In this document: piece after piece, positions 1-63,812 of the stretch | Layout: the number at the start of each line of letters is the position of its first letter | How positions within the stretch are numbered: the first letter of the stretch is position 1 | NCBI GenBank assembly: GCA_002269645.1 | Contig: NIVC01000397.1 | Coordinates: forward strand, 184,463 to 248,462 | Source of the DNA: Macrostomum lignano | Taxonomy: Eukaryota | Reading direction: 5' to 3' | DNA length: 64,000 bases | Notes under the pieces: generated by a model | Seen by the model: the letters and a program-made list of their open reading frames with translations, nothing else | Database searches by the model: none | What the model was told of the DNA's origin: nothing | Program-made: the position numbers and the translations under genes

Positions 1-489
1 CCTACCGTTCCTCGCGTTCCTAGCTTTCCAAGCTTTCCTAGCGTTCCTTCCGTTTCGTTTCTAGCGAACTCTAAGTTGTGTGCCAAGTTGACGCTTAAGT
101 TGAACTCCAAGACTCCCGACTTTGCGCGTGACTGCCTCTGGCTCTGATTGTTCCTGCTATCAGCTAGCAGGCCAGCTCAGATCGCCCGAAGCTAGCACTT
201 TCGCTCTCACCCCGCACCAGCCCGGCAGGGACTGCTGACGGTGGGCACCTCTGCGCGAGAACTGCTAAATCTGCACGAAGTGCGAGTCTCTTTCTCTCGT
301 CTTAGTTATTTGCTTCTACGAGCTCAGCACCTCACCGAAGGCTGCGACTCTGCGAAGCTGGTGGCAGCACTACCAACGCTACTAGATCAACCCGGAGACT
401 TCCCAGAGGAGCTCAAGCAACTGTACTTCACCGGGGCAGCGTTCCTATTGAAGGCCTCTAGACAACCACAGGCAAGAACCTGTACTTCA
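1..489 (+). repeat. 5' LTR (R/U5 part only)
   Basis: Matches 9059-9548; ends ...TGTACTTCA, followed by 1 nt and the TGG of the PBS. Confidence 0.95.
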
Positions 490-490
490 C

Positions 491-514
491 TGGTGACTCA
501 GCGGTGGGATTCGA
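491..514 (+). promoter_or_regulatory. Primer binding site, tRNA-Leu-like
   Basis: TGGTGACTCAGCGGTGGGATTCGA; its reverse complement TCGAATCCCACCGCTG(AGT)CACCA resembles a eukaryotic tRNA-Leu 3' end (..TCGAATCCCACCGCTGCCACCA, from memory). Confidence 0.75.
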
Positions 515-623
515 CGAGTCAACGACACGACTATCTGGGATCCGACAAGTCAAGATTCGACTACTACTACACCCAAGACAACCGCTCTTTCGAGTAAGAA
601 TTCGGCTATTCTACTAATTTGAA

Positions 624-1583
624 ATGTTTAACGAGAGAGAAGAGAGCCGGTGCAGCAGCCGGCTGGATCAGCACATCAGCAGTTCGAGACCTGCAGCAGC
701 ATCGGCTGCCGCAGCAGCAGCGGTCAACGACCTTGGTCAGCAGATGCCGCGGCGAAGTGCGAGAAGCGAAGTGTCCGAAGACCCGCCAGACGAGCTTCTG
801 CCAGGTTTGGACGACCTCGGCCAGAACATCAGGCCCCAGGATGTGAGAACGATGATGGCAGCTCTGCAGCAGCAGATGGAGCGGCCGGTAAGCAAATCTG
901 TTAAGATTGTAAAGTACACGCCCAGCCAGGACATCCACGTCTGGCTCGCCGCGTTCGAGCAGCGCTGCGAGATGGAGCGTATCGAAGACCCGATCGAGAT
1001 GAAGCAGCACCTCGTTGCGAGTCTAGATCTGGCAACCGCTTACCCGGCTCTGCTCAGTATGCACCTCCCACGCTATGCTGGCTACGAGGAGGTCAGGCAG
1101 CGACTGATCGAGAGATTCGCCCGCCACGGTGGCGCGGATGAATATCGAGAGCTGCTGAGGCGCCGTCAGCAAGGCAAGAATGAGTCAGCAGAAGAGTACG
1201 CTGATGCCCTGCGCACCTTGGGAGAGCGAGCGTACCCTCGAATGCACCCTGAGGATCGAGAGCGGGAGCTGGCTGATCAGTTCCTAGCTGGCATCAGGAC
1301 GACACCAGATCTGCGCGAGCGGCTCTATTGGGTCCGCCCGAACAATCTGCTGGCCGCTATTCGAGAACTCCATCGTCTGGAAGGCGCCAAGGAACTGGCG
1401 CAGCGCTCTGCTCAACCCCCGGTTCGCATGCTGAACGGGGAGCGCGACGGTGACCCGACGCCCGACGCCACCGCTCAAGCTCTCCTGGCTCTGACTGATC
1501 TGCTAGAGAAACAGCAGCGACTGCTAGACAACCTGGTGCAGCGTGACCAGCAGCAGAAACGAGTCCGCCGGCGAAAGCCATGA
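624..1583 (+). CDS. gag: Gag (capsid); the CCHC zinc knuckle continues in the -1 frame (1580-1651)
   Basis: Retrotransposon capsid-like segments (WLAAFEQRC, RQQGKNESAEEYADALRTL, LADQFLAGI); CYGCGQPGHRNAQC knuckle just downstream, one frame over. Confidence 0.9.
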   Translation: MFNEREESRCSSRLDQHISSSRPAAASAAAAAAVNDLGQQMPRRSARSEVSEDPPDELLPGLDDLGQNIRPQDVRTMMAALQQQMERPVSKSVKIVKYTPSQDIHVWLAAFEQRCEMERIEDPIEMKQHLVASLDLATAYPALLSMHLPRYAGYEEVRQRLIERFARHGGADEYRELLRRRQQGKNESAEEYADALRTLGERAYPRMHPEDRERELADQFLAGIRTTPDLRERLYWVRPNNLLAAIRELHRLEGAKELAQRSAQPPVRMLNGERDGDPTPDATAQALLALTDLLEKQQRLLDNLVQRDQQQKRVRRRKP

Positions 1584-1644
1584 TCTGCTATGGCTGTGGT
1601 CAGCCTGGTCATCGCAATGCACAGTGCCCGTTACGCCAGAACCA

Positions 1645-1651
1645 GGGAAAC
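1645..1651 (+). promoter_or_regulatory. Candidate -1 programmed ribosomal frameshift heptamer G GGA AAC
   Basis: Correct X XXY YYZ phase in the zinc-knuckle frame (CAG GGA AAC); the -1 frame stays open toward the protease. Confidence 0.65.
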
Positions 1652-1877
1652 GGCGAGACGGAGAGCGCCCACGGCAACGCCCTCCGCAGAGCCCAAGCCC
1701 CGGCTACTTGGCAGACTCCGAACGCTCACCAGAAGAAGAGGATGTCGGCTGCGCAGACGCCAATGCCCAGTCCGACAGTCGCTCATCAGTAAGTGAGGCT
1801 GAGTGCGGAGGTTTCGTGGACACCTCCGATGATAAAAAATCCATGCGCGTGAGGCTGATCCGTACGTCACCGGCCGA

Positions 1878-4409
1878 TTGGCGGGCCGAGAAGTCCCTTT
1901 CCTACTAGACAGCGGCAGTCGGAAAAACTTTCTTGGAGCGTCGACCTGGGCCAATGTTAGACGTCGGATGCCTCGTTGTATCATATCGCATGCTATCCCG
2001 GATTGCGTGACCATGTACGACGGTACGCAGCTACCCCTTGCGTGTAAGGTGATCATCCCGGTGGAGTTCGGTGATGTCGTCGCGGACACCGAATTCCTGG
2101 TCACGGTCACCGATTGTGAAAATTTGCTTGGTATTAATTTCATGCGTGAACACTGCCAGAACTTGGACTTTGCTCAAGGAATGTTAAAGTTCAACAATGG
2201 CGCGTGCATTCCCGTTCGCTATTCGCGCCGTGAGCTTCAATCATGCCGGGTGTACACCTCCGAGAAGTGCACTCTGCCGCCGAGAAGTTCAGCGCTGTTG
2301 GCCGTCCAGTTGGATGTCGGCCACCCCGAGAACCGAGGATCGCCATCAATCGTCGAGCTGGTGAAGTCGAGACTGCACCCCAGCTGCAACACTCTGGAAG
2401 CAGCTCCAGCTCTGATGACTATGCCTGAAGGTCGAGGCTACATCGAGGTCGTCAACACTGCTGACTGTGAGGTGTTCCTGCAGTCGGGCATCCGCGTTGG
2501 TGTTGCGACACCACTTAGAACTGCCGACCTGATGTACCTGGAAGAGACGCCGGAACCTGAAGTGCGACATTTGCCAAGGAGCCCTGAAGAGTCCAGCACA
2601 GCTTGGCTAGAGGAAGTCGAGATCAACAGCGAGCTGTCCGAAGATCAACGACAGAGAGTGCGAGATCTACTAGTTGAGTGTCAAGCAGCCTTCTCGAAGC
2701 ATCTGCTAGACGCTGGCCTGACACACCTGGTGACCCACGAGATCATCCTGAAGGATCGGACACCAGTTGCGCTACCACCGCGCAGGATCCCGCCTCATCT
2801 GAAGGACAAGCTAGACGCCCTGCTAGACGAGATGCTGGCGAAGCACATCATTCGCCCGGCTTATTCTAGCTACAACTCGCCAATGCTGATAGTGCCCAAG
2901 AAGGACGGCAACATCAGGCTGGTGCATGACTTCAGAGCTCTCAACGACAAGTGTGTGTACCACCCGTACCCGCTGCCGCACATTCAGGAGACCTTCGCGA
3001 AGCTGCGTGGTGCCCAGTGGTACTCTAGCTTGGATCTCGCTCAAGGATTCTGGCAGATCCCGCTGCGCGACTGCGATCAGCACCTGACGGCGTTCTCTGT
3101 GATTGACCGCGGACAATTCTGTTTCAATGTTCTACCGATGGGTCTCCACGATAGTCCAGGCAGCTTTCAGCGTTGCATCAATAAGCTCCTGGACGGCCTG
3201 ACGCCAAAGACTGCGCTTGGCTACATGGATGACATCGTGGTGCACTCTGTGACCTTCGAGGAGCAGCTGGACAACCTGCGGACTGTACTCCAGCGGATTA
3301 TCGCAGCCAACCTCAAGGTCAAGCCGAAGAAGTGCCATTTGTTCCTCAAGGAGCTGCATTATCTAGGCCACGTCGTGACTCCCGACGGCCTGAAGACCTG
3401 TGAGGACAAGATTGCGCAGATCCGTGATTGGCCCGTGCCACAGTCCGTTACTCAACTGAGACAATTCCTAGGCCTCGCCAATTACTACCACAAGTTTGTC
3501 AACGGCTACGCTGGATTTGCTGCGCCGCTACATGCCCTGACTCGAAAGGACATCGGCAGCCTGCGGCAGCATTGGACTGATGAGCACCAGGTAGCGTTCG
3601 ACACGTTGAAGAAGAAGTTGTGTTCGACTGAAGTTCTCGCTCTGCCTGAGTTTAACTCAGATCCTAATGTGAAGTTTGTCCTAGACACGGATGCCTCAGA
3701 CATTCGCATAGGCGCTTGTCTTGGACAACGGCAATCCGACGGCGTCGAGCGCCCAATTGCATTCTTTAGCCGGAAGCTTCGTGATCCTGAGAAGCGCTAC
3801 ACGGTCACGAAGAAAGAGCTGCTTGCAATCGTGGACGCGATGCGACATTTCCGTCATTATTTAATCGGCAAGAAGTTTGAAGTTCGTTCTGACCATCGGG
3901 CCTTGCTGTGGCTGCTGAACCAGACGCAGGTCACAGGCATCTTGGGCCGTTGGATTGAGCGATTAAGCGAGTTCCGCTTCCAGCTTCACCATCGCAAAGG
4001 CAAGGACCACGCCAACGCTGACGCCCTGTCAAGACGCCCGGAGACACCACCGGTTGACTTCGAACATGGCCGACTGCTGGAGCACCCCGGTTCTGCAGCC
4101 CGACCCGGTGATGACACCAGCCTGGAGCCGGAATTGGACACCACACGTGAGGCCACTGCGAGAGCAGCCCGCACGAAGAAGGTCCACACTCGCAACAAGG
4201 AGGCCGAAACTGCCCTGGCCGAAGACCTGGAGGCCACTGCGCCAGCAGCCCTTCAGCACGACGACCATCGCTGCAGTCAACGCCTGGAGACCGGTTTGGA
4301 CACCAACCCGGAGGCCACTGACACCTCAGCCCTCCGCACGACGCCCACGCCGACTGCCGTTACTTGGAGATTCGCCCGGACAAAACCTCGGAGGCCACTG
4401 CTGACGTAG
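1878..4409 (+). CDS. pol: Pol part 1: aspartic protease, reverse transcriptase, RNase H
   Basis: FLLDSG protease motif; YNSPM..VPKKDG..RLVHDFRALN, LDL..GFWQI, LPMGL, YMDD; RNase H TDASD, KELLAIV, RSDH, ANADALSR. Confidence 0.96.
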   Translation: MAGREVPFLLDSGSRKNFLGASTWANVRRRMPRCIISHAIPDCVTMYDGTQLPLACKVIIPVEFGDVVADTEFLVTVTDCENLLGINFMREHCQNLDFAQGMLKFNNGACIPVRYSRRELQSCRVYTSEKCTLPPRSSALLAVQLDVGHPENRGSPSIVELVKSRLHPSCNTLEAAPALMTMPEGRGYIEVVNTADCEVFLQSGIRVGVATPLRTADLMYLEETPEPEVRHLPRSPEESSTAWLEEVEINSELSEDQRQRVRDLLVECQAAFSKHLLDAGLTHLVTHEIILKDRTPVALPPRRIPPHLKDKLDALLDEMLAKHIIRPAYSSYNSPMLIVPKKDGNIRLVHDFRALNDKCVYHPYPLPHIQETFAKLRGAQWYSSLDLAQGFWQIPLRDCDQHLTAFSVIDRGQFCFNVLPMGLHDSPGSFQRCINKLLDGLTPKTALGYMDDIVVHSVTFEEQLDNLRTVLQRIIAANLKVKPKKCHLFLKELHYLGHVVTPDGLKTCEDKIAQIRDWPVPQSVTQLRQFLGLANYYHKFVNGYAGFAAPLHALTRKDIGSLRQHWTDEHQVAFDTLKKKLCSTEVLALPEFNSDPNVKFVLDTDASDIRIGACLGQRQSDGVERPIAFFSRKLRDPEKRYTVTKKELLAIVDAMRHFRHYLIGKKFEVRSDHRALLWLLNQTQVTGILGRWIERLSEFRFQLHHRKGKDHANADALSRRPETPPVDFEHGRLLEHPGSAARPGDDTSLEPELDTTREATARAARTKKVHTRNKEAETALAEDLEATAPAALQHDDHRCSQRLETGLDTNPEATDTSALRTTPTPTAVTWRFARTKPRRPLLT

Positions 4410-5293
4410 ACCTCCTTGATGATGTCCAAGACTGCGGGTCTCGGAATCTGGAGACGCCCATGGACCACGACTCAGAGGCCACTGAACAAGCAGCCCTTCT
4501 GATGACAGCCCACAACGCGAATCCAGACCAGCAATGTAAGTTCAACTCCCCGGAGTTTTGCGCTGAGAGTTCTCGCCGTGTTGACAGAGGCCAGACTCTC
4601 GCGACGGCTGCAAGGTCAACGCTCTGTCCCCCGAGCCGACAGACAGCTGCTCATCGCCTGTGCGGAAAGTCGAGTCCCCCTTTGCGACACCGCCCAGTGC
4701 TGGAGAAGACTCACCCAATGACGACGATGATCGAGCCGACGGCTACGGCTGCCTGCGACGAGGCGTGCTTCACGTGTTGCGTCTCGCCCTACAGCCAAGA
4801 GTCGCCTGGGCTGTGCAGTGGAGGCAAGTGCACTGCTCCAGCTGCGGAAATTCCTGTCAAGAGAGCGACGATGAGAACTTCGAAACGAGATCAGCGATCG
4901 TACGCCGACGTTGTGAGACAAAGTCCCTCGGAGCGACCTAATCCTGACGCCGACAAGACGGAGTCGCGTGATCAACTGCGAGCCACAGAAGCGGAGACTG
5001 AGGAAATCCGGAACCCTCAGCCATGCCGCGCCGTGCTCACTGATTTTCTGAGGATGCCGATGACGCGGCAACAGTTTGTCGACGCGCAGCGCGCCGACCG
5101 AGCAATCAGCTACGTGCTCAACTTGGTCGAGAACAAAGCCCTGAAGCCTGAGTTCGACGCCCGGTTGCGACTGACGAAGGAGCAGCGGAATCTGCTCGGA
5201 TATTATGATAATCTGCGAGAGGACAACGGCCTGCTGATGATCGATCTGACTGATGGCCAGCAGCCCCGAAGGTTGTCCTGCCCGAAGCTCTAG
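4364..5293 (+). CDS. pol: Pol part 2: long RH-IN tether and integrase N-terminal region (frameshifted segment)
   Basis: Continues the 81-bp repeats begun in part 1; ends with QRADRAISYV...YDNLREDNGLL, typical of sequence preceding gypsy IN. Confidence 0.75.
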   Translation: MEIRPDKTSEATADVDLLDDVQDCGSRNLETPMDHDSEATEQAALLMTAHNANPDQQCKFNSPEFCAESSRRVDRGQTLATAARSTLCPPSRQTAAHRLCGKSSPPLRHRPVLEKTHPMTTMIEPTATAACDEACFTCCVSPYSQESPGLCSGGKCTAPAAEIPVKRATMRTSKRDQRSYADVVRQSPSERPNPDADKTESRDQLRATEAETEEIRNPQPCRAVLTDFLRMPMTRQQFVDAQRADRAISYVLNLVENKALKPEFDARLRLTKEQRNLLGYYDNLREDNGLLMIDLTDGQQPRRLSCPKL

Positions 5294-5301
5294 ATGCCCA
5301 G

Positions 5302-6243
5302 GTGCTCCAGGAGCTCCACAGTTCGCCACTGTGTGGACACCTCGGCCAGACGAAGACGTTGAAGCGGCTACGTGAACGATTCTGGAGGCCCGGATTAGCC
5401 CGTGTCACCGAGAACTTTATCAGTAAGTGCCGCGCCTGTCTTGAAAGTAAATCCCGAAGACGAGACCGAGTACCTGTACAGAGCTTCCCTGTGTGCGAAG
5501 TCCTGGGAAGAGTACATTGCGATGTAGTAGGCCCTATCGCCCAGAAGAGCAAGAGCGGGAACCGCTACATCTTGACGCTATGCGACGCGACGTCGAAGTA
5601 CCCGTTCGCCTATCCGATGAGGAACCAGAAAGCCAAGACGGTCATCAAGATCCTGCAGGAGCGCTTGATCCCTGACTTTGGTGTACCATGCTGGATACAC
5701 ACTGATCAAGGAACCAATTTCACTGGCTCAGCTTTCAAGAAGTTCTGCGACCTGTTTGGCATCCGGCATACGACGACAACACCGTACAACCCAGCTTCTA
5801 ATGGGCAAGTCGAGAACCTCAACAAGCAGCTGAAGAGTGTCCTCACCTGCCTCCTCGAGCGCAACCATAACGACTGGGACACCTTCCTCCCAGCCTGCTT
5901 GATGGCGCTCCGCTCTAGTGTACACCCGGTGACAGGTTTCACGCCTCACTACCTGGTGTTTGGTCGAGACTTTCGACTACCAATCGACAACGCGATCAAG
6001 AAGCTGCCGGAGTATGCCAATCTGCCTGACTATGTCAAGGACTTCCAGCGCCGTTTAGACGAAGCGACTGAGCTAGCAAAGAACGCCTGCATCTGCATCA
6101 GCAACTGCGCGACGAGCACTATTCGAACCTGCCCGCTGCCAAGAAGCTCCAACCTGGTGACCTGGTTTTCCTCAACAACCCGGTGCTCGAACCGGATGAA
6201 GCGGCGAAGTTCCATCGACCTCGCAAAGCGCTGTACGAGGTAG
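5302..6243 (+). CDS. pol: Pol part 3: integrase HHCC zinc finger and DDE core
   Basis: LH-x6-GHLG...CRAC; HCDVVGP, HTDQGTNF, NGQVENLNK. Confidence 0.96.
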   Translation: MLQELHSSPLCGHLGQTKTLKRLRERFWRPGLARVTENFISKCRACLESKSRRRDRVPVQSFPVCEVLGRVHCDVVGPIAQKSKSGNRYILTLCDATSKYPFAYPMRNQKAKTVIKILQERLIPDFGVPCWIHTDQGTNFTGSAFKKFCDLFGIRHTTTTPYNPASNGQVENLNKQLKSVLTCLLERNHNDWDTFLPACLMALRSSVHPVTGFTPHYLVFGRDFRLPIDNAIKKLPEYANLPDYVKDFQRRLDEATELAKNACICISNCATSTIRTCPLPRSSNLVTWFSSTTRCSNRMKRRSSIDLAKRCTR

Positions 6244-6779
6244 TCGAACCCAAGGGCGAGGTCGTCTACAAGATTCGCCGTAGAGTGCCAAACCCGCGGG
6301 CCAGGCGCGACGAGCTAGTAGTCCATCGCCGGAATCTGCTACTCGTCCCTGATGCCGACTACCAGCTGACTTCGGATCCAGAAGTCGACCAGGCCAAGAA
6401 ACGCCGCAGGTCGACAGATGCCCCGGACGGTGCAGGACCCGCGACTCTGACACCGATTCCGGAGGACGATCCGGACGAGGACGATGATGATGATGACGCA
6501 TGGCCGGCCTTCCGGTGGCGCTTCCGGCCGTTGGCGATCCCGGATGTGCAGCCAGGAGGTGGACCGGTCACGACACCAGCGAACCAGGCAAGTGCATTTC
6601 GGCGTGAGCCACTGCCGTATGGTGATCGCCATGATGGTGTGCCTGGTTTGAATGCGTCTGCACCTGCTGCTTCTTTTTCACCTGCCCACGCGTCCCCCCT
6701 TCCCGAACCTTTTTCTGCGGCGCAGTCTCCTGCGCCACCTTCTTGCACCACTCGGTGGAAGCGTCTCCCATACCAGTAG
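6183..6779 (+). CDS. pol: Pol part 4: integrase C-terminal (GPY/F-like, SH3-type) region and acidic/Pro tail
   Basis: FHRPRKALYEVVE...VYKI...VVHRRNL resembles the gypsy IN C-terminal module; joins part 3 after a 1-nt shift near 6081. Confidence 0.75.
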   Translation: MLEPDEAAKFHRPRKALYEVVEPKGEVVYKIRRRVPNPRARRDELVVHRRNLLLVPDADYQLTSDPEVDQAKKRRRSTDAPDGAGPATLTPIPEDDPDEDDDDDDAWPAFRWRFRPLAIPDVQPGGGPVTTPANQASAFRREPLPYGDRHDGVPGLNASAPAASFSPAHASPLPEPFSAAQSPAPPSCTTRWKRLPYQ

Positions 6780-6870
6780 TGGTAGGTAGGCCAGTTAGGG
6801 ATCGGAGGCCGCCGAGAGGCTTCTGATTAGCGATCCTAGGGCCAAAACGTACGTTAGTCGCACCGCCCGC

Positions 6871-8013
6871 ATGCGTGTGCACAAATTAAAACCTTGCAGC
6901 GCAGAAATGCACAAGCGTCCGCTCCACGTGAGCTCAAGCTCCTCGTCCGATGCGGAGCAAGGGCGGCCTAGCCGTAGCCGGCGCCGACCTGGTACCCCGG
7001 TCTCGCCAGAGACCATGGGGATCCCGCGGCGCCCGCTGGAGACAATTAACCGGAGACTCAGGGCTGAAGGCAACGGCTCGGCGAGGCCGACGCGCCAGGT
7101 TGATCGGCGCCCTCACCGTCGCACGCCGTCTCCCGAGCCCCAGAGGCGGAATGGGAGGCCACTCCGAACATCGGCACCCAGGCGAAGCCCTTCGCCCGTT
7201 CTGGAGAGCCATGCAGCTCAACACCCCGCTCGGGGTCAACGACACTCGCCCGAAGTCATCGACCTCACGCGCGACTCGCCATCGCCAGACGCGACTGCGC
7301 GGACACTCATGGTCGACCGGATCGCGGCCGCTTTGGCTTACGTGCAGCTGGAACAGCAGGTGATGCGGGGCTTGGCGGACATCCGCCTCCAAGTCCGCAA
7401 TTCCCTTCCAGACATCGACGGGGCTCGGCCGGCGGCCCGTGAGCGAGTCGGGTCGGAGCACCACGGCAGGCCCGGCGGAACAGATGAACGCGGAGGGGAT
7501 CTCGACGACGCCAGGCATCCCGACGCGGCCCCGTCTCCGATGTCTTGGACCGATGACACTCAGGGAGCGGCCGCATGCTCCTCAGCTGTTTGGACCGACC
7601 TGGCCGCGTCGCTGCGCCGCACCCTGCCCAGGGCCCCGCCACCATCGCCCGAACGTCCGGCGGAAACGCTCGATACCGGCACTCAAACGGAGTCGCCAAT
7701 ACCGGAATACCGAGCTACCGTCATCGCTGCCGGCGCCAACCTGATAAGCGCTGTACTCGTCAGAGCGGCTCGGCAAGGCGGAGAAATCGTTGACCTCGGT
7801 GGCCCGATCTGGGCGGAGCTCCGTCAAACCACGGCCGAGGAGAGGAGCCGGTTATTCGCGGAGGCGGTCGGCCTGGCCGGCCCCGACCTGGAGCGGCCGA
7901 ACCGGCCGTACGCTCTCCACCTGGCGGCCGTCCGCGTTGCCCGATTCATGGGCGGCGGGGAAGAAGACCTGCCGATGCTCTTGATGACTCCGCGTCTGTG
8001 CTATTTTGACTGA
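6871..8013 (+). CDS. ORF3 of the retrotransposon: 380-aa non-env protein of unknown function
   Basis: Uninterrupted ATG-TGA ORF between the pol stop and the PPT; basic/Ser-Pro-rich N-half, EVIDLT motif, predicted helical C-terminal domain; no signal peptide or TM segment seen. Confidence 0.75.
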   Translation: MRVHKLKPCSAEMHKRPLHVSSSSSSDAEQGRPSRSRRRPGTPVSPETMGIPRRPLETINRRLRAEGNGSARPTRQVDRRPHRRTPSPEPQRRNGRPLRTSAPRRSPSPVLESHAAQHPARGQRHSPEVIDLTRDSPSPDATARTLMVDRIAAALAYVQLEQQVMRGLADIRLQVRNSLPDIDGARPAARERVGSEHHGRPGGTDERGGDLDDARHPDAAPSPMSWTDDTQGAAACSSAVWTDLAASLRRTLPRAPPPSPERPAETLDTGTQTESPIPEYRATVIAAGANLISAVLVRAARQGGEIVDLGGPIWAELRQTTAEERSRLFAEAVGLAGPDLERPNRPYALHLAAVRVARFMGGGEEDLPMLLMTPRLCYFD

Positions 8014-8403
8014 TTGGCGGCCGTACGCTGATGTACGCCCTGTTGACAATGAAGTTGCCCCGTTTGCCGCGCTAGTTAAGCGCCCTTATGCAGGAATTTT
8101 AAGCCGGTTGGCTTGTGTATTCAGGTATCGCCCGCGCAATATTTAGGCGCCATTTCTAGGGTGGGCCGGCGCCCCCACACCAAATTCGAGCACTAATTTT
8201 GCGGGCTGGAGCACGAGGAATAGTTAGGCGCAGGCTATTAGCGGGTTGGCGCCCCCGCGGTATCAGGCCACTATCTTTACGACCTGGCCAGTCGCGCAAT
8301 TTCACGAGCGCATTTGAAATTTTGTGTGTTTTCTTTTGTCAGTAAATTCACGTTTACTTTGTTTTAAATAAAGCGCGCGCCGCTTCACTCCGCCTCTTTA
8401 TTT

Positions 8404-8415
8404 GAACGGGGAGAG
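8404..8415 (+). promoter_or_regulatory. Polypurine tract
   Basis: GAACGGGGAGAG immediately before the TG of the 3' LTR. Confidence 0.85.
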
Positions 8416-9548
8416 TGTAGTGAGTCGCTAGTTTAGTTAGGCGCCGCACTAGTCAGCTGTTGCCCTCGCCTTCTCCCCAGGTTTCTGTCTGCCGCTGGGC
8501 AGTTGCCTGTCCCTCCCGCCTGTCCCTGGCCTGTCCTCTGCCCGTTTGTCTGTCTGTCTGTTTGTCCTCGTTTGCCCCTTTTGTCTCGCTTTCCCTTTTT
8601 GCAGTGCCCAGACAGCTTGGTCTGGCCTGCCTCTGTTTCGTTCTCTGTCAGGCATCTCCAAATTTGGAGTGCCTTCCTGTTTTCCGGTCCCTCGGTCACG
8701 AGTGCCTTCACTTGTGGGCCTTTTCCCCTTGTCATGTGAGTCAGTCACATGACAAGGCCCTCTTCCTTCTTTAGTCCAAAGTGCAATGATTTCATCATTG
8801 TACGCTGGGCTCGTGTTTATGGGGAGATCTCGTGCGCCCGGACCCCCCCTTGCCTCCTCTGAGGCAGGGCCCGCTTGTTTGTTGCTAAAAATAGCAACAG
8901 AGTCACTTATGACTCTCAGCGGGGGCCTTTCGTGCTATGGTGCAATCGATCCTCCCTATAAATGCAGCCCTTCTCCTGGCTTGGCTCAGACATGCCTTTC
9001 TTTCCTTCCGTTAACCGGCCCTTCCGTTTCAGCCTCTCGTTTCTGCGTTTTCAGCGTTCCTACCGTTCCTCGCGTTCCTAGCTTTCCAAGCTTTCCTAGC
9101 GTTCCTTCCGTTTCGTTTCTAGCGAATTCTAAGTTGTGTGCCAAGTTGACGCTTAAGTTGAACTCCAAGACTCCCGACTTTGCGCGTGACTGCCTCTGGC
9201 TCTGATTGTTCCTGCTATCAGCTAGCAGGCCAGCTCAGATCGCCCGAAGCTAGCACTTTCGCTCTCACCCCGCACCAGCCCGGCAGGGACTGCTGACGGT
9301 GGGCACCTCTGCGCGAGAACTGCTAAATCTGCACGAAGTGCGAGTCTCTTTCTCTCGTCTTAGTTATTTGCTTCTACGAGCTCAGCACCTCACCGAAGGC
9401 TGCGACTCTGCGAAGCTGGTGGCAGCACTACCAACGCTACTAGATCAACCCGGAGACTTCCCAGAGGAGCTCAAGCAACTGTACTTCACCGGGGCAGCGT
9501 TCCTATTGAAGGCCTCTAGACAACCACAGGCAAGACACCTGTACTTCA
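8416..9548 (+). repeat. 3' LTR (1133 bp)
   Basis: Starts TGTAGTGA after the PPT and ends TGTACTTCA; the last 490 bp match the window start. Confidence 0.93.
8957..8963 (+). promoter_or_regulatory. LTR TATA-like box
   Basis: TATAAAT about 540 bp into the LTR, upstream of a pyrimidine-rich R-like region. Confidence 0.55.
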
Positions 9549-9910: not shown

Positions 9911-12900
9911 CTGGGATAATGCGAGGGTAAATATGAGTCCAGCTATTATCCGGCCATTAGCAAACAGTGTAAGGCAAGAGTGCTGGCGATACTACACCTT
10001 TTCACGTTCAATTTTGATCAAAGTCCAGTTCTAAAAAAACTAGCGGAAATTCAATTCAGACTGAGGATAATTTTGTCTATGGCTAAACCTTACTTCGGTT
10101 AGAATGTTTTGAACTGGGGTTAGACTGGGCCCAACTGGACATGATCAAAATTGAACGTGAAAAGGTGTAAGAATGTGTTCGCTGGTTAAGTTTGTTACAC
10201 TGAACTCGGCAATTAATCATCGTTTCCTATCGAAGACACTATATATACCTTTTTACGTTCTGTTTGATAAAAACTGCAACCAATTTGGCCACGGCTCAGC
10301 CTGACGCAGCCGCAGCAATTTTCCATAGACAGCCACCGCTAGCGGCAACCAATTTGGTAAAAACTGCGAGCTATTTTGCCAGCTTGAAGATAGCAGCTCA
10401 ATAGCATAACAATAACGATAAAGAATGTTAACAATACATGCACGAAGTCAGAACATTATGTCCTCAGCATTCAAGCACCGATTGAAGTACGTCTGGGAAT
10501 GGTTGATCCAGCGCAGGCACTTGAGAGGCGTGATGCAGTTCAGTGCTTGCTGCACTTCTCTCTTCAGAATGCGCATCCTATGCTGATGCAGTGTCGCACC
10601 TGCTGCAGCAGCCAGTCCAGTATCTGCCAACTCTACCAGTTCGTTCATACGTGGTCACGATGTTCCTCACTGTCGGTTTCTTCATCCCCATCATTCTGCC
10701 AAGCTCTCTCCAGTCGTCGCCGCTCCTGTACGCTCTCACGATTCGCTCTCGATCCAGCTGACTTATCTTTTGGTACGGCCCACGATTCGCCATCAGAGCA
10801 GCTGCTATCTTCAAGCTGGCAAAATAGCTCGCAGTTTCTACCAAATTGGTTGCCGCTAGCGGTGGCTGTCTATGGAAAATTCTATGTCTATGGTCAGGCT
10901 GAGCCGTGGCCAAATTGGTTGCTGTTTTTATCAAATAGAACGTAAAAAGGTATATTATTACCCGCTGTCGTATAATCTGTGGTGACTGCCCGCCCAGTTT
11001 CGTCTATCCGCCCTACATGCTATTGCTGAACATAAACACGGTCCGAACTGTCGTTGTCATTTCCGCGGTTGAAATATCCCATAAACTGGAGTGAGTTAGT
11101 TTAGAAATAATTTTTCATTGATTTGACCAATAATGGAGCCACTGAGTCACCAACGGCAGTGCGAACCGCATTGAAAATTGAAGTACAGTAGAAAGACGCT
11201 AAATCGATTTTCCCAGAAATGAGCTGAAGGTAAGGAACATATAGTACGAGTATAATTGTCGCATCGCTAGTGCTTTTGCTCTCGAGAAGTCGGATTTTTC
11301 TAGCGCGAAGTTTTTTCGACCGAATTATTCTATAGCGAAGCCCCCTTCAGAGCCGTCTAGCTTCCGAATTCTAGCGATTCGGAAAATATTCGATCTTTAC
11401 AAGCGTGCACCTCATTTCTAAAAAAATCGAGTGTGCCGTTCACTTCAGTTGTCCATGGCAAACCGACTTAAGCATATCAAGCGTCTGTACACATTGAATG
11501 CTCTGTAATGAAGGCGTGTTTATACTTATTAAACGTGTTTGAGCAGTTGAACAATCATGTATCTGGGACTCAAAAGCTTATTTATAATATTTCCTTTAAA
11601 TGATGAATAGATGGAAAATGATCATATTTTACCTTCGCTCCCGCTCTGATACGACAGCTTGAAGATGTTGCCACTGACCCGCTTTGTGGTGACTCGAACC
11701 AGCACGGGACCTCTCAGCCTGAACTCTACAGAGGTCGCGTTCGTCATTGACCTGTGCTCAGAGACGAAGGCCAGCCTGTCCTCGCTGGGGTCAGCAGTCA
11801 TCTCGTACAGTCTGACAATATCTGCGTGAGACAGCTTCAGCGAGACCCAGCCTTGACGATCAATGAGCCACCTGTAGTCAGTCTCGAGGTCATACTTCAT
11901 CTCTTCTTCCGCAGGAAGCTGCTCGCCTTCAGAGCAGACAACATCGGCTTTTTCGTCTGTCAGGTTTCTCGATTTTACTAAAACGGTTTCATTCAGAGCG
12001 TACTGAGGAATGATACGAATATTAAAGATGTAAATTATTAGGTTGACGGAAACAGTAACTTCACTTTCTGTTTGTTTTGTTTTGCTTTGTTTTGTCACTC
12101 TCTGTAAATGTTTACTGACTGACTTAATTAACAACAACTTACTTCTGCTGTCAAGAGCCGAGTAAGATAAGTTGAAGCCCGCCTTGGTGACACTGTAGTC
12201 AGTAACGAATTGGATCAGCACCGGACCAACGACCTGGGCTGTTTTGTTATTTCTTGTCACAGTAAACACTTTCTCAGAATCCTGAGCATCTTCAGAAAGC
12301 TGAGTCTTCTCATAGAAACTGATTTTATCGATTCCCGCTTCAACGTCATACGAGTCAACCTTAATCTCGAGCAGGCTCAGATCGCCGATCCACCAGGCGT
12401 ACGTTTTGCTGTTTAAATAGTTGCCACTGCCGAAGTTCTCTGGGCATTGAAGCTTTCCTGAGTCGACTGAAAAGGCATCGAAAATTGAATAGACATCAGA
12501 TGCTTTGCATTGGCTCAAATTTAGACCCACCTTGCATGCTAAAATTTAACTTAAATAATAATAATTAACATTACCAATTACTATAAACAGTAATGAGAGT
12601 ATCTGGAACTCAGGAATTCGAAACTCACCCACGTATCGATCGAGATAATAATCGATTATAAAGCCTCTTGACGCGTTCTGACGATCAGTTTTAAACTGGA
12701 TCAACGCAGGTCCAATCAAAACATACTTTCTTGAGCTCCAGCTGTCTCCAGTCAGTGTGTATTTTCTGTTCTCAGTCTGCGGTTCCGCCGAAGAGTCAGT
12801 CTTTTCATAGAATTCAACCACATCGTTTGCGTCCTGAATGCCCATGCTTCTAACTGTCAAAAAGACAACTCTGCTCGATGGGATGTACCAACGATAGTCC

Positions 12901-24660: not shown

Positions 24661-25425
24661 GTTATTGTTGTTGTCGTTGTTGTTCTTGCCGTTGTGGGCA
24701 ATAGTTTCGTTCTCTAATAGAAAGGATAAGACGAATTCCAAAATCTGTACTTATATGTAAAACAGGTCTGAGAAAAAGTAAAACCATTCCAGGTAGCTAT
24801 GTATAGACCTCCATGAATGAACAACGCTGATGGCCTGATTAAATCCAAGTTCGAAAGGGTTAACTAATTAGCCCTAATTTATTAACCTAACTAATTAACC
24901 CTAACTAATTACATTAGAGTGGCCAGTGATTTATCAGTTTAAGCAGGCCAGCGCCCGAGCCCTAATCTAGAGTACCCATCTGTCTTTCTGATGAGGTTTG
25001 CGATTTTTTAACCTTTTGGCGTGCCGAAACTTGTTAAATATTTGTCAACCGGAAACACGGCCCTTGTCTACCATCAAAGGGAGCATTTGAAATTGCGATC
25101 AAGTAAACAAAATAGCATCCGATTGGCAGAGCTCCACTACTTTTATCAGATTATAATTTGACATCTGTAAATATTTAAGGCAAACAATTTCAACGGAAGC
25201 TTGTTCTGGAAAGAAAAAGTAAGAAGATGGAGAGAGGTGAAGATGAGTTTTCAGATTAAGCACAAATTTTAAGCTTAGCTTCTGATTACGAAGTAATATA
25301 TTGGTCTCGTGGATCCTGCGGTTTAGGCTACTGGTTCATTATAATTATTCTTTAGAATTTTTACTGGTTTGATTTTGGTAGGTTGCTGCCACCAGGTTTC
25401 GTGATACTACTCCCTAATCCTAGTA

Positions 25426-26002
25426 CGAGGGGTGTTCCAAAAGTCCTTTCCCTTTTGAACATAAAGGGAAATGCAATGCTCTTGCAATGCTGCTCCGATT
25501 TCATTGCGGTTTTCGTAACTTGGCAACTAAACTATTAGCTCAGATTTATTGTCGAAAAAATTATTATAACACCAAGTTTTAAACAAGCAGCAACTGATTT
25601 CAAACAATGTGCATGACGATAGAGTTACACAGATTTTAAAAAAATGCCTAGGGTTTAGGGTCTAGGGTCAGATTTTGATGACGTTAAACTGTTAAACTGT
25701 TAAACTAAACAGTTAAACTGTAGATGAGCTTTCTATACTGACAGTGCTAACTTTGACGTGAAATTAATCTCAGATGGTTTGACGATCTTTTGGTAAAAAT
25801 GACTTGCTTTTGATTTCTCTGTTGCAGTGGGTCAGCGAAAAATGAATAGCAACACCAACACCATAGAAAAAATGATCAAATTAAAAAACTTTTGAGCTAA
25901 AGAGCATCTTTTTATAGTCGAAAACCGCACTCAAATCGGAGCAGTATTGCAAGAGCTACGAGCGTATGTTCAAAAGGGAAAGGACTTTTGGAACACCCTT
26001 CG
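25426..26002. mobile_element. Mariner-type non-autonomous element/MITE (577 bp)
   Basis: TIR CGAGGGGTGTTCCAAAAGTCCTTTCCCTTTTGAACATA extending imperfectly to ~90 bp; TA at 25424-25 and 26003-04. Confidence 0.88.
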
Positions 26003-26939
26003 TATTTCGCGATTAAAGAAGTGAGACAGGACACCAATATAGATTTTAATTGTTCAGGCAAAATATTATAAAATTTCAACATACAAAAGGAGTTCTACAT
26101 TACTTTTTTCCAGCATTTTCCCTTGTTATTACATGTGCTTTGTGTTAGCATAGCAATAAAAATAATTGTTAGCCCTTCCACTAAAAACAATATGATGGCG
26201 ACCGAAAGACCAGCTTTAACACAAATACTTTGCTATCCTCGTAGCATCTTTATCTGATCGTACTTGTCTCTACGCGTCTTGGCTTATTTGCCTCGATCTC
26301 ACTCTCGCTTTCTAACGTTTCATATAATGTCCATAGACGTCAATTTGAGCATATGCACAGCCATATGCACAGCCATGCTATTTGTCTATGTTGGTCCCTT
26401 ATTTTTCCCTTATCTTAATGTCTTTTGGCATTAGGTTGGTTGTCTCCCTGCTAATTGTGTCTTGGCTCTCATCACTGACAGTGGATTGGTGTCCTGGGGA
26501 AGAGTTCGTCCCGAATCGGGGAATACCGACTGAGTCCGGTGTCCCTTTGCTCATTGTTTAGCAATTTGACGATCATTATTCACATTTTTAATGCAGAACA
26601 ATCCATTACTACAAACAATGCATTGTCTGTAGGCTCGTCAAACAGAAAAACAATGCAAAGAATCAGCGGTCGCAGTGCGTGACAACGACAACGAGGGACC
26701 GCTGATTATTAATACATTGTATCATTTTGGAGGGGTTTTTAGGGGTATAGCAATCAAGCCAGATTGTTGCACGCTTTGAATGTCTATGGCCGAAGCCAAC
26801 GTCTGAGCTAACTATTTAATGCTATATTTAGCAGTTGTAGCATTATAAAAACCTAATATGAAAAAACAAGCTTGTAACATTACAAAAAGCATAGAAAAAG
26901 CATATACGCTCGTAGAAATTATAGAAATTATAGAAAAAG

Positions 26940-63224: not shown

Positions 63225-63812
63225 CACTCAGCAACAGTCAAAACCGCCACCCTACCGAGAGAGGCGACTTCTCTCTCACCTCAACTGCAAGTGCCGTAAC
63301 TTGCGCCACGTGGCTAAAGCTGGGTGAGAGTGAATTCCAGGGTGAGAGTACAAAAGGGACTGGGGTTGGGGTGCAACAGTACACGTGACAATGGTCAGGC
63401 AATGACAGACGCTGAACGATGGCGCGCTGTTGGCATGCCAGAAGCTGGTGCATCCATCAGCGCAGTTGCTCGCCAATTTGGTCGATCACGTTCAACAATT
63501 CGAGCGCTGTTAACGAAGTCCCAAGAGACTGGTAGTGTTCAGCATGCAGCCATAGGCAGCCAGCGCCATGATCTCCGCGGCTCAACAGCCAGGGCAAATT
63601 GACGTCTGCTGCGGATTGTCAGGCGAACTTCGACCGCGCCAGCAGCCACCCTGCTCTGTGTCTAATGTGGGGTGAAAGAAGCAGATTGCCCTCTCCTGCA
63701 TTCACTCTCACCCAGCTTTAGCCACGCCGTGGCGCAAGTTACGTCACTTGCAGTTGAGGTGAGAGAGAAGTCGCCTCTCTCGTAGGGTGGCGGTTTTGAC
63801 TGTTGCTGAGTG
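63225..63812 (+). mobile_element. Internally deleted Tc1 element (588 bp)
   Basis: ~120-bp TIRs starting CACTCAGCAACAGTCAAAACCGCC, TA flanks; the interior encodes only the HTH MTDAERWRAVGM..SISAVARQFGRSRSTIRALL..QETGSV. Confidence 0.88.

Follow-up and report, generated by a model that had tools for sequence, protein, structure and literature searches.

An exchangeable C-terminal Pol tail with a retained PIAS-type SUMO-interaction motif in a Ty3/gypsy retrotransposon of Macrostomum lignano

Accessory open reading frames other than env are already known in LTR retrotransposons (PMC5408684 and PMC13486581). In Cer1, a Ty3/gypsy element of C. elegans, the CERV protein joins Gag exons to a 3′ exon and has G- and M-domains (PMC10309623). 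The Macrostomum lignano sequence described here, termed the tail, differs from CERV in that it appears to start at an ATG just past a splice acceptor, has a predicted all-helical domain, keeps a SUMO-interaction motif (SIM) and is swapped as alleles; no homology between the two was found. The non-env ORF3s of bdelloid rotifers resemble the tail as accessory modules in the env position that are gained and lost as units; those ORFs, separate and family-specific, code for enzymes (GDSL, DEDDy), coiled-coil proteins or TM proteins (PMC5408684). The tail, in contrast, has a Pol-fused form as well, and its variation lies inside a single near-clonal family. The env/sORF2 frames of Drosophila gypsy/mdg1 elements, likewise 3′ accessories under purifying selection weaker than that on pol, with env repeatedly lost, encode membrane proteins for cell-to-cell spread (PMC13486581). 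The tail, by comparison, has neither a signal peptide nor a kept TM segment.

The chromodomain of chromoviruses and the Ty5 targeting domain are modules that extend past the integrase C-terminal domain and could contact chromatin. Set beside these, the tail extension is ~550 aa long, has no chromodomain or PHD by Pfam, and possesses its own acceptor and ATG. VANC proteins, encoded by VANDAL DNA transposons of Arabidopsis, are trans-acting, fast-diverging anti-silencing factors with sequence-specific DNA binding; the tail is proposed to have the same role, whereas VANC comes from plant DNA transposons and the likeness is one of role alone. Searches of open-licence PMC and bioRxiv text yielded no report of the tail module, nor of any retrotransposon accessory protein with a SIM or any subgenomic LTR-element RNA made by leader splicing, and the words "ORF" and "SUMO" are absent from the main text of PMC12801592.

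The window analysed is a 64,000-nt stretch of M. lignano DNA (GCA_002269645.1, contig NIVC01000397.1, positions 184,463 to 248,462), and a Ty3/gypsy LTR retrotransposon occupies its positions 1-9548. Pfam matches follow the PR-RT-RH-IN order, and the element has the polypurine tract, the LTRs with TG...CA ends and the target-site duplication (4 bp) expected of Ty3/gypsy. The LTRs are 1133 and 1134 nt long and differ by 11 substitutions per 1130 aligned positions (~99% alike). The main parts of the element are as follows.

1..489, + strand: 3′ part of the 5′ LTR, which starts 643 nt before the window.
491..508, + strand: putative PBS-like TGG... stretch directly after the LTR, from sequence.
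618..1620, + strand: gag, broken near 1560 in the window copy, with a CCHC knuckle at its end.
1836..8013, + strand: pol (protease, RT, RNase H, long linker, integrase, tail), a single frame in siblings and broken here.
5254..6335, + strand: integrase zinc finger, core (rve) and p58-type C-terminal domain (PF17921, PF00665, PF22938), the PF22938 match lying under its cut-off.
8367..8372, + strand: AATAAA, candidate poly(A) signal upstream of the 3′ LTR and right edge of the variable cassette.
8404..8415, + strand: polypurine tract, from sequence.
8416..9548, + strand: 3′ LTR with TG...CA ends, from sequence and LTR comparison.

The AATAAA was found in 11/11 copies among those listed, of 14. 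A 16-mer covering a splice donor described below marks 110 copies in the genome set (G000), and the family's protein records that carry a species name belong to M. lignano. Copy counts overstate independent insertions because the assembly is redundant (PMC12801592). A pattern search of the element LTR found no canonical heat-shock element. The linker between RNase H and integrase is unusually long, with ~81-nt repeats and a Cys-rich patch (window 4120-4500, 4322-5250), and a second IDLT-type string, MIDLT, lies at 5237-5251, just 5′ of the integrase zinc finger; relatives have LIDLT or LIDLS there, and the string may be structural. Elsewhere in the window, a small element at 10243-10955 carries inverted repeats of 63 and 82 nt (97-99%) in a nested arrangement, and similar elements lie at 25424-26004 and 63256-63782; tandem arrays (units 11-82 nt) are dense over 33700-61200; and an open frame of 307 aa at 11622-12545 encodes a protein that looks CUB-like.

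The sequence-only reading of this locus described a 380-aa third ORF in the env slot at 6871-8013. An ATG-to-stop frame of this length is indeed present, as are the VIDLT string at 7255-7269, within SPEVIDLTRDSPSP, and an N-terminal half rich in Arg and SP. The frame is not a free-standing gene, since the same residues close a continuous in-frame Pol in sibling copies. Near-identical siblings (99-100% identical across 6871-8013) have open Pol frames including the tail of 1852, 990 and 919 aa, and those of diverged copies measure 2139, 1284, 1375 and 1251 aa. The window copy is shorter than 7-11 of 11 siblings at ~1560, 1830, 4340, 5260, 6080, 6750 and 6810; the breaks near 6750 and 6810, which are what isolates the 380-aa frame, are private to it. 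At five or more of the seven break places (among the matches listed), contigs from four public runs read as the siblings do, and the window breaks are therefore assembly errors or private mutations. The frame is continuous with Pol in most copies and distinct from it in one lineage only (3 copies).

That the frame is unbroken while gag and pol are broken, a point made in the sequence-only reading, carries no weight: 6/12 near-identical full-length matches, the window copy included, have indels inside the stretch, so its intactness here is due to chance. The ATG at 6871 was rejected as the start codon. It lies upstream of a splice acceptor, is ATC in the second backbone group and occurs at the equivalent offset in 40/55 copies, and the start that is kept is the ATG at 6907. 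The stem-loop proposed at 6798-6842 sits in pol coding sequence and is no more stable than expected (z = -0.98; 30/200 shuffles fold equally well), and its homologues have folding energies of -7.5 to -19.6 kcal/mol and do not keep the same pairings. On the evidence of the copies compared, the 380-aa stretch is the C-terminal tail of Pol and also an exchangeable cassette, and despite the private frame breaks it still looks like a functional unit.

At least 12 tail alleles (14 unbroken sequences aligned, two near-duplicates dropped), with 21-88% protein identity and a median of 33%, are carried on two near-clonal pol backbones. DNA identity falls from ~95-100% in the flanks to 54-66% right at the ATG at 6907 and recovers before the PPT. 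RT sequences form two groups, each 97-100% alike (old decayed copies aside) and each with several tails, and different tail alleles within RT groups are 39-79% identical. Because near-identical RT backbones carry several tails, old alleles must have recombined onto young backbones. Many tail carriers have LTR pairs that are 99-100% alike over the overlap compared. For alleles A, B and C, dS is 0.04-0.06 in the integrase core and 1.3-1.6 in the tail, where dN/dS is 0.21-0.35; over the 10 pairs of five alleles dN/dS is 0.21-0.56, rough values obtained by the Nei-Gojobori method on pairwise alignments of low-complexity sequence, with dS near saturation and sometimes undefined. These ratios show that the tail has evolved under purifying selection. 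Local positive selection was considered as the source of the divergence and rejected, as dS rises along with dN; the divergence is old, with dS near saturation, so nothing suggests that amino acids were recently under positive selection. Three separate insertions lack the tail, have LTRs 99.4-99.9% alike, and lost the acceptor together with the tail. Judged from these insertions, the tail is dispensable in cis.

The following features were identified in the tail.

6907..8013, + strand: tail protein from the kept ATG, 368 aa (copy alignment and gene models).
6964..7185, + strand: Arg/Ser/Pro-rich low-complexity region; 18-25% Arg in the first 110 residues in 12/12 alleles.
7255..7269, + strand: SIMb-type motif VIDLT, then D-S-P; IDLT in 11/12 alleles.
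7591..7650, + strand: amphipathic W-x2-L-x3-L helix and APP-x-[ST]P motif (tail alignment; model helix 4-17).
7672..7692, + strand: candidate LC8/DYNLL-type motif DTGTQTE; [AGS][TICV]QT in 10/12 alleles.
7702..7986, + strand: all-helical C-terminal domain of ~95 aa in the predicted structure, with no clear structural match.

IDLT is the best-kept 4-mer of the tail (shuffle p ~0.001 per allele) and is retained with synonymous codon changes where synonymous sites are near saturation, so the VIDLT motif is under purifying selection. The motif has the hydrophobic-[IV]-D-L-T core and the acidic or Ser flank of a conserved SIMb. Two psi-K-x-E sites occur in the one allele that lacks the motif, and a single such site in each of two others. 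A second SIM had been proposed at GEIVDL; this string is not conserved over the 12 alleles, and its I column is Pro in the other 11. The motif of LC8 partners is [D/S]-K-X-[T/V/I]-Q-[T/V]-[D/E] (PMC3078936), which DTGTQTE fits except for the K; the matches among the 10/12 alleles are looser, stand at two different positions and have shuffle p values of 0.02-0.09 each. LC8 might thus assist dimerisation of the tail protein. The Arg-rich region may serve in nuclear localisation or RNA binding, and the protein as a whole is predicted to be nuclear. AlphaFold2 (20 sequences) placed the all-helical domain at residues 44-138 of 146, with block pLDDT mostly 88-95 and 80 in one loop.

As the sequence-only reading had it, the tail does not resemble env. 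Hydropathy profiles of 12 alleles revealed no signal peptide and no kept TM segment: the N-terminal 19-residue Kyte-Doolittle maximum is -0.6 in the window copy, and residues 282-300 reach a borderline 1.68 (the other 11 alleles peak at 0.75-1.62) in a helix that the predicted structure places inside the globular bundle. No Pfam family matched the 380-aa frame at E<=1, nothing fell under E 0.04 in Pfam searches of 15 tails, and a PDB sequence search with the tail gave 0 matches. Foldseek comparison of the C-terminal domain with the PDB and viral models, the check proposed for it, gave 0 hits at E<=0.001 and no env or host match. The best VIA-align result for the domain (Z 5.5, rmsd 3.8, 88 aligned) was to unrelated helical proteins at background level, and does not imply a novel fold; in the ESM Atlas the best score was 0.85, with HD-domain clusters at or below 0.82, a chance level. 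No homology to a known fusogen, and no fold of one, was matched in the Pfam, PDB and fold searches, the last 146 aa having been modelled. A tail profile searched against 1.84 billion representatives had six matches, of which five belong to the element family and the sixth is a repeat protein over 37 residues. Among 44 Pol relatives, a SIM-like motif after the integrase was present in 0/44, and the tail profile matched P0005, of the same family, only.

These data bear on three possible origins of the tail: decay of an env, capture of a host gene, or passenger DNA in which the motif arose by chance. The single borderline hydrophobic window (1.68) and the existence of tail-less copies would suit such an origin; the lack of a signal peptide, a Cys count of just 3, dN/dS of 0.21-0.56 in 10/10 allele pairs, IDLT retained under changed codons, and the absence of any Pfam, PDB or clear fold match, with 5/6 of the matches in the 1.84 billion belonging to its own family, all argue against it. 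We consider any such origin exceedingly improbable and already largely refuted.

VIDLT is the core of the PIAS SIMb, and a lone SIM binds weakly, at 1-100 uM (PMC3901395); SIMs are loose motifs helped by acidic or phosphorylated flanks (PMC12751080). In PIAS and RNF4 (PMC3901395, PMC12751080), the VIDLT core lies in a disordered region and is followed by acidic and phosphorylatable residues, as in the tail. The tail differs from them in having a single SIM, a short acidic flank and no SP-RING or RING domain, and it is therefore not a SUMO ligase or STUbL. Docking of tail residues 104-139 to worm SUMO (L156) scored 0.42 against 0.02 for the best control, a weak pass, with contact agreement of at least 90% and partner pLDDT of at least 51. 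In the calibration, based on a set without peptides, 5/78 solved complexes scored 0.60 or less, as did every one of the 4 mismatches (of 180) that passed, and the docking score may reflect memory of solved SIM-SUMO structures. The tail protein very probably binds SUMO. SUMO itself is coded in a single 92-codon open frame at seven or more places on 4 contigs, several of them inverted pairs (L156-L162).

Transposon silencing has been linked to SUMO in other animals (10.1101/533091), and in flies and nematodes SUMO is reported to take part in silencing guided by piRNAs. The tail might instead act in the nucleus as a SUMO-binding transactivator or a modulator of the host cell (e.g. of stem-cell state or stress response), with a role unrelated to silencing; this would be in keeping with a disordered, motif-rich protein bearing a SIM, which is like viral regulators, and with a tail that is dispensable in cis. 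Such a role would not in itself account for one backbone having many old alleles, and we regard it as very unlikely.

Processing signals for a separate tail RNA lie inside pol.

6585..6593, + strand: GC-type splice donor CAG/GCAAGT, intron start 6588; common 5′ end of 4 intron-less copies (3 events).
6588..6899, + strand: intron or outron within pol coding sequence; most copies have 314 or 311 nt, and its removal changes the frame.
6894..6899, + strand: main splice acceptor, TT[TGC]CAG, which bounds the variable cassette on the left.
7402..7411, + strand: second splice acceptor, used in one intron-less copy (C3306).

The kept ATG at 6907 stands 7 nt past the acceptor at 6899. One copy (C1341) shows exact GC..AG loss from 6588 to this acceptor, and C3306 shows exact GC..AG loss from 6588 to the second acceptor at 7411. 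Two copies of the other backbone group (C2766 and C1069) have exact GC..AG losses from the same 6588 donor, and count as one event because they are 98% alike with common flanks. Deletions other than of the intron, in the copies listed, have scattered ends, unlike the GC..AG losses from one donor. The intron-less copies may be reverse-transcribed spliced RNAs. The donor is present in 61 copies, 55 of which match the acceptor search (54 with TT[TGC]CAG, 1 with TTTTAG); the remaining six comprise 3 tail-less copies, 2 with an altered acceptor and 1 unmatched. The residue coded over the acceptor varies (F, C, S) while the acceptor is kept. From donor to ATG the frame is open in 35/55 copies, and dN/dS of the intron-coded stretch is 0.42-0.47 between distant alleles. 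Removal of a 314-nt intron shifts the frame, such that integrase gains a short new tail and the tail frame opens to Met codons in an Asp run; in this run of the integrase (window 6480-6500), several Met codons stand in another frame, which becomes the tail frame after the 314-nt splice.

Several rearranged copies were also observed. A copy with identical LTRs (L083, C723) lacks 761 nt of integrase (window-equivalent 5423-6183), starting exactly at a GTAAGT donor-like site and with a 3′ end that is not AG. Another (L071, C3668) has, from window-equivalent 6261 onward, a GT..AG-bounded deletion landing just before the SIM, in two copies in tandem; this deletion also has 4-nt microhomology, and could stem from splicing or template switching. 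L073 and L104 (C2766, C1069) are non-autonomous, consisting of LTR, integrase end, intron-less tail and LTR, without gag or RT.

All four NCBI gene models of the tail that the searches returned begin at the acceptor or at most 3 codons from it: two at the ATG, one a codon past the ATG, and one, 5′-partial, at the first full codon past the acceptor. At their loci the frame is open far upstream, over 956-1644 aa; one contig also carries a second copy, with 819 aa. The M. lignano annotation cut transcripts at mapped leader-splicing peaks before ORF calling (PMC5730564), and the spliced leader ends in ATG, with [T/C]TNCAG as trans-splice acceptors (PMC8629364). The tail acceptor fits this motif in 54/55 copies that match the acceptor search. 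In one lineage (L072, L141, L142; 3/3 copies) the fusion is lost and a 396-397-aa tail frame is kept. Contigs of two runs from two studies, X1 and X5, presumed to be RNA, start exactly at 6899 among the matches listed; a contig of run X16 starts at 6888, and one of run X3 crosses the acceptor unbroken (6567-8412). The genomic variants examined explain branches at 6888 and 6897 and none at 6899, so that the starts at 6899, which are what a leader ending in ATG would give, provide a weak hint.

Other searches were negative within their scope. A 6587-to-6900 joint was absent among the 15 of 19 contig joints listed, and the run contigs (24 of 189 loose ends listed) displayed no leader letters at the acceptor. 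When genomic copies carrying a different leader at the acceptor were sought by pattern, 8 matches came up, none of them in the element. The NCBI tail records carry no trans-splicing flag, the gene ids of the tail models had no match in the supplements of PMC12801592 and PMC5730564, and three tail motifs had none in those of PMC12801592. Under the "donor-first" rule a cis donor outcompetes the spliced leader (PMC4558846); the weakness of the GC donor may therefore leave room for trans-splicing, and leaky scanning would be needed because the leader's own ATG is out of frame with the tail. From the acceptor, the copies and the gene models, an RNA of the tail alone probably starts at 6899, and its production by spliced-leader trans-splicing seems somewhat favoured. 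A separately expressed tail product, alongside the Pol-fused form, is likely.

The open frame into integrase raises the possibility that the tail works mainly within integrase, with the Arg-rich region and LC8 motif aiding nuclear entry and the SIM tethering the complex to SUMOylated chromatin in a chromodomain-like role; alleles may then favour different sites. This would explain the kept fusion, as the tail is in frame with integrase in both backbone groups (35/55 copies) and the intron-coded linker is under mild purifying selection, and SIM and TQT motifs suit tethering and transport. A fused tail needs no kept acceptor, kept ATG or gene models starting there, one lineage dropped the fusion and retained the tail frame, and tail-less copies inserted recently. 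On balance we find a main role within integrase unlikely.

Usable splice sites in the element, a layout like that of CERV (PMC10309623), the Arg-rich region in 12/12 alleles, and the joint loss of acceptor and tail in tail-less copies would equally fit a CERV/Rev-like regulator made from processed RNA. Its Arg-rich region would bind unspliced element RNA and aid export or shield it from splicing, and SUMO would place it at transcription sites or pores. Nothing among the profile and structure search matches resembles CERV or Rev in sequence or fold, Gag exons form part of CERV and a gag-to-tail joint was not seen, near-identical pol RNAs are paired with very different tails, and the SIM would be left unexplained. 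We hold such a regulator to be quite unlikely.

Our tentative preference, at rather less than an even chance, is for an accessory protein that binds SUMO in the nucleus and counters silencing in trans. An RNA beginning at acceptor 6899, probably trans-spliced, would give a stand-alone tail protein that binds SUMO in the nucleus and acts in trans against SUMO-dependent silencing of the element. It would do so either by filling the SIM-binding groove on SUMOylated silencing factors or by delivering the helical domain to such factors. Selection would favour rare alleles, since host proteins or small RNAs track common alleles, and tail-less copies would ride on tail protein supplied in trans. This interpretation is preferred because the SIM, separate expression, dispensability and the allele pool are all accounted for together. 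It builds on what was observed in the copies, namely purifying selection, frame continuity, the kept donor, acceptor and ATG, intron-less copies, mosaic alleles, SIM retention and tail-less copies; silencing as the target is its least supported part. Against it count the kept Pol fusion in both backbone groups, which it neither needs nor explains, the great age of the tail divergence with its lack of recent positive selection, and the one lineage without a SIM together with the weak binding of lone SIMs; the tail model that starts just past the ATG is unexplained by a stand-alone start at the ATG. The fullest version, in which host leader machinery cuts a SUMO-binding anti-silencing mRNA from pol, an old pool of alleles recombines onto near-clonal backbones and tail-less copies cheat, is doubtful as a whole. 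Roles against silencing, within integrase and in RNA export need not exclude one another.

Element-encoded counter-silencing is poorly known for animal retrotransposons. Two features are unusual in their own right: the probable dual coding, as Pol tail and in an RNA of its own, and the number of old alleles that near-identical backbones carry. The SIMb kept on a dispensable, swappable module offers a five-residue handle for tests in a worm with transgenesis (PMC5730564).
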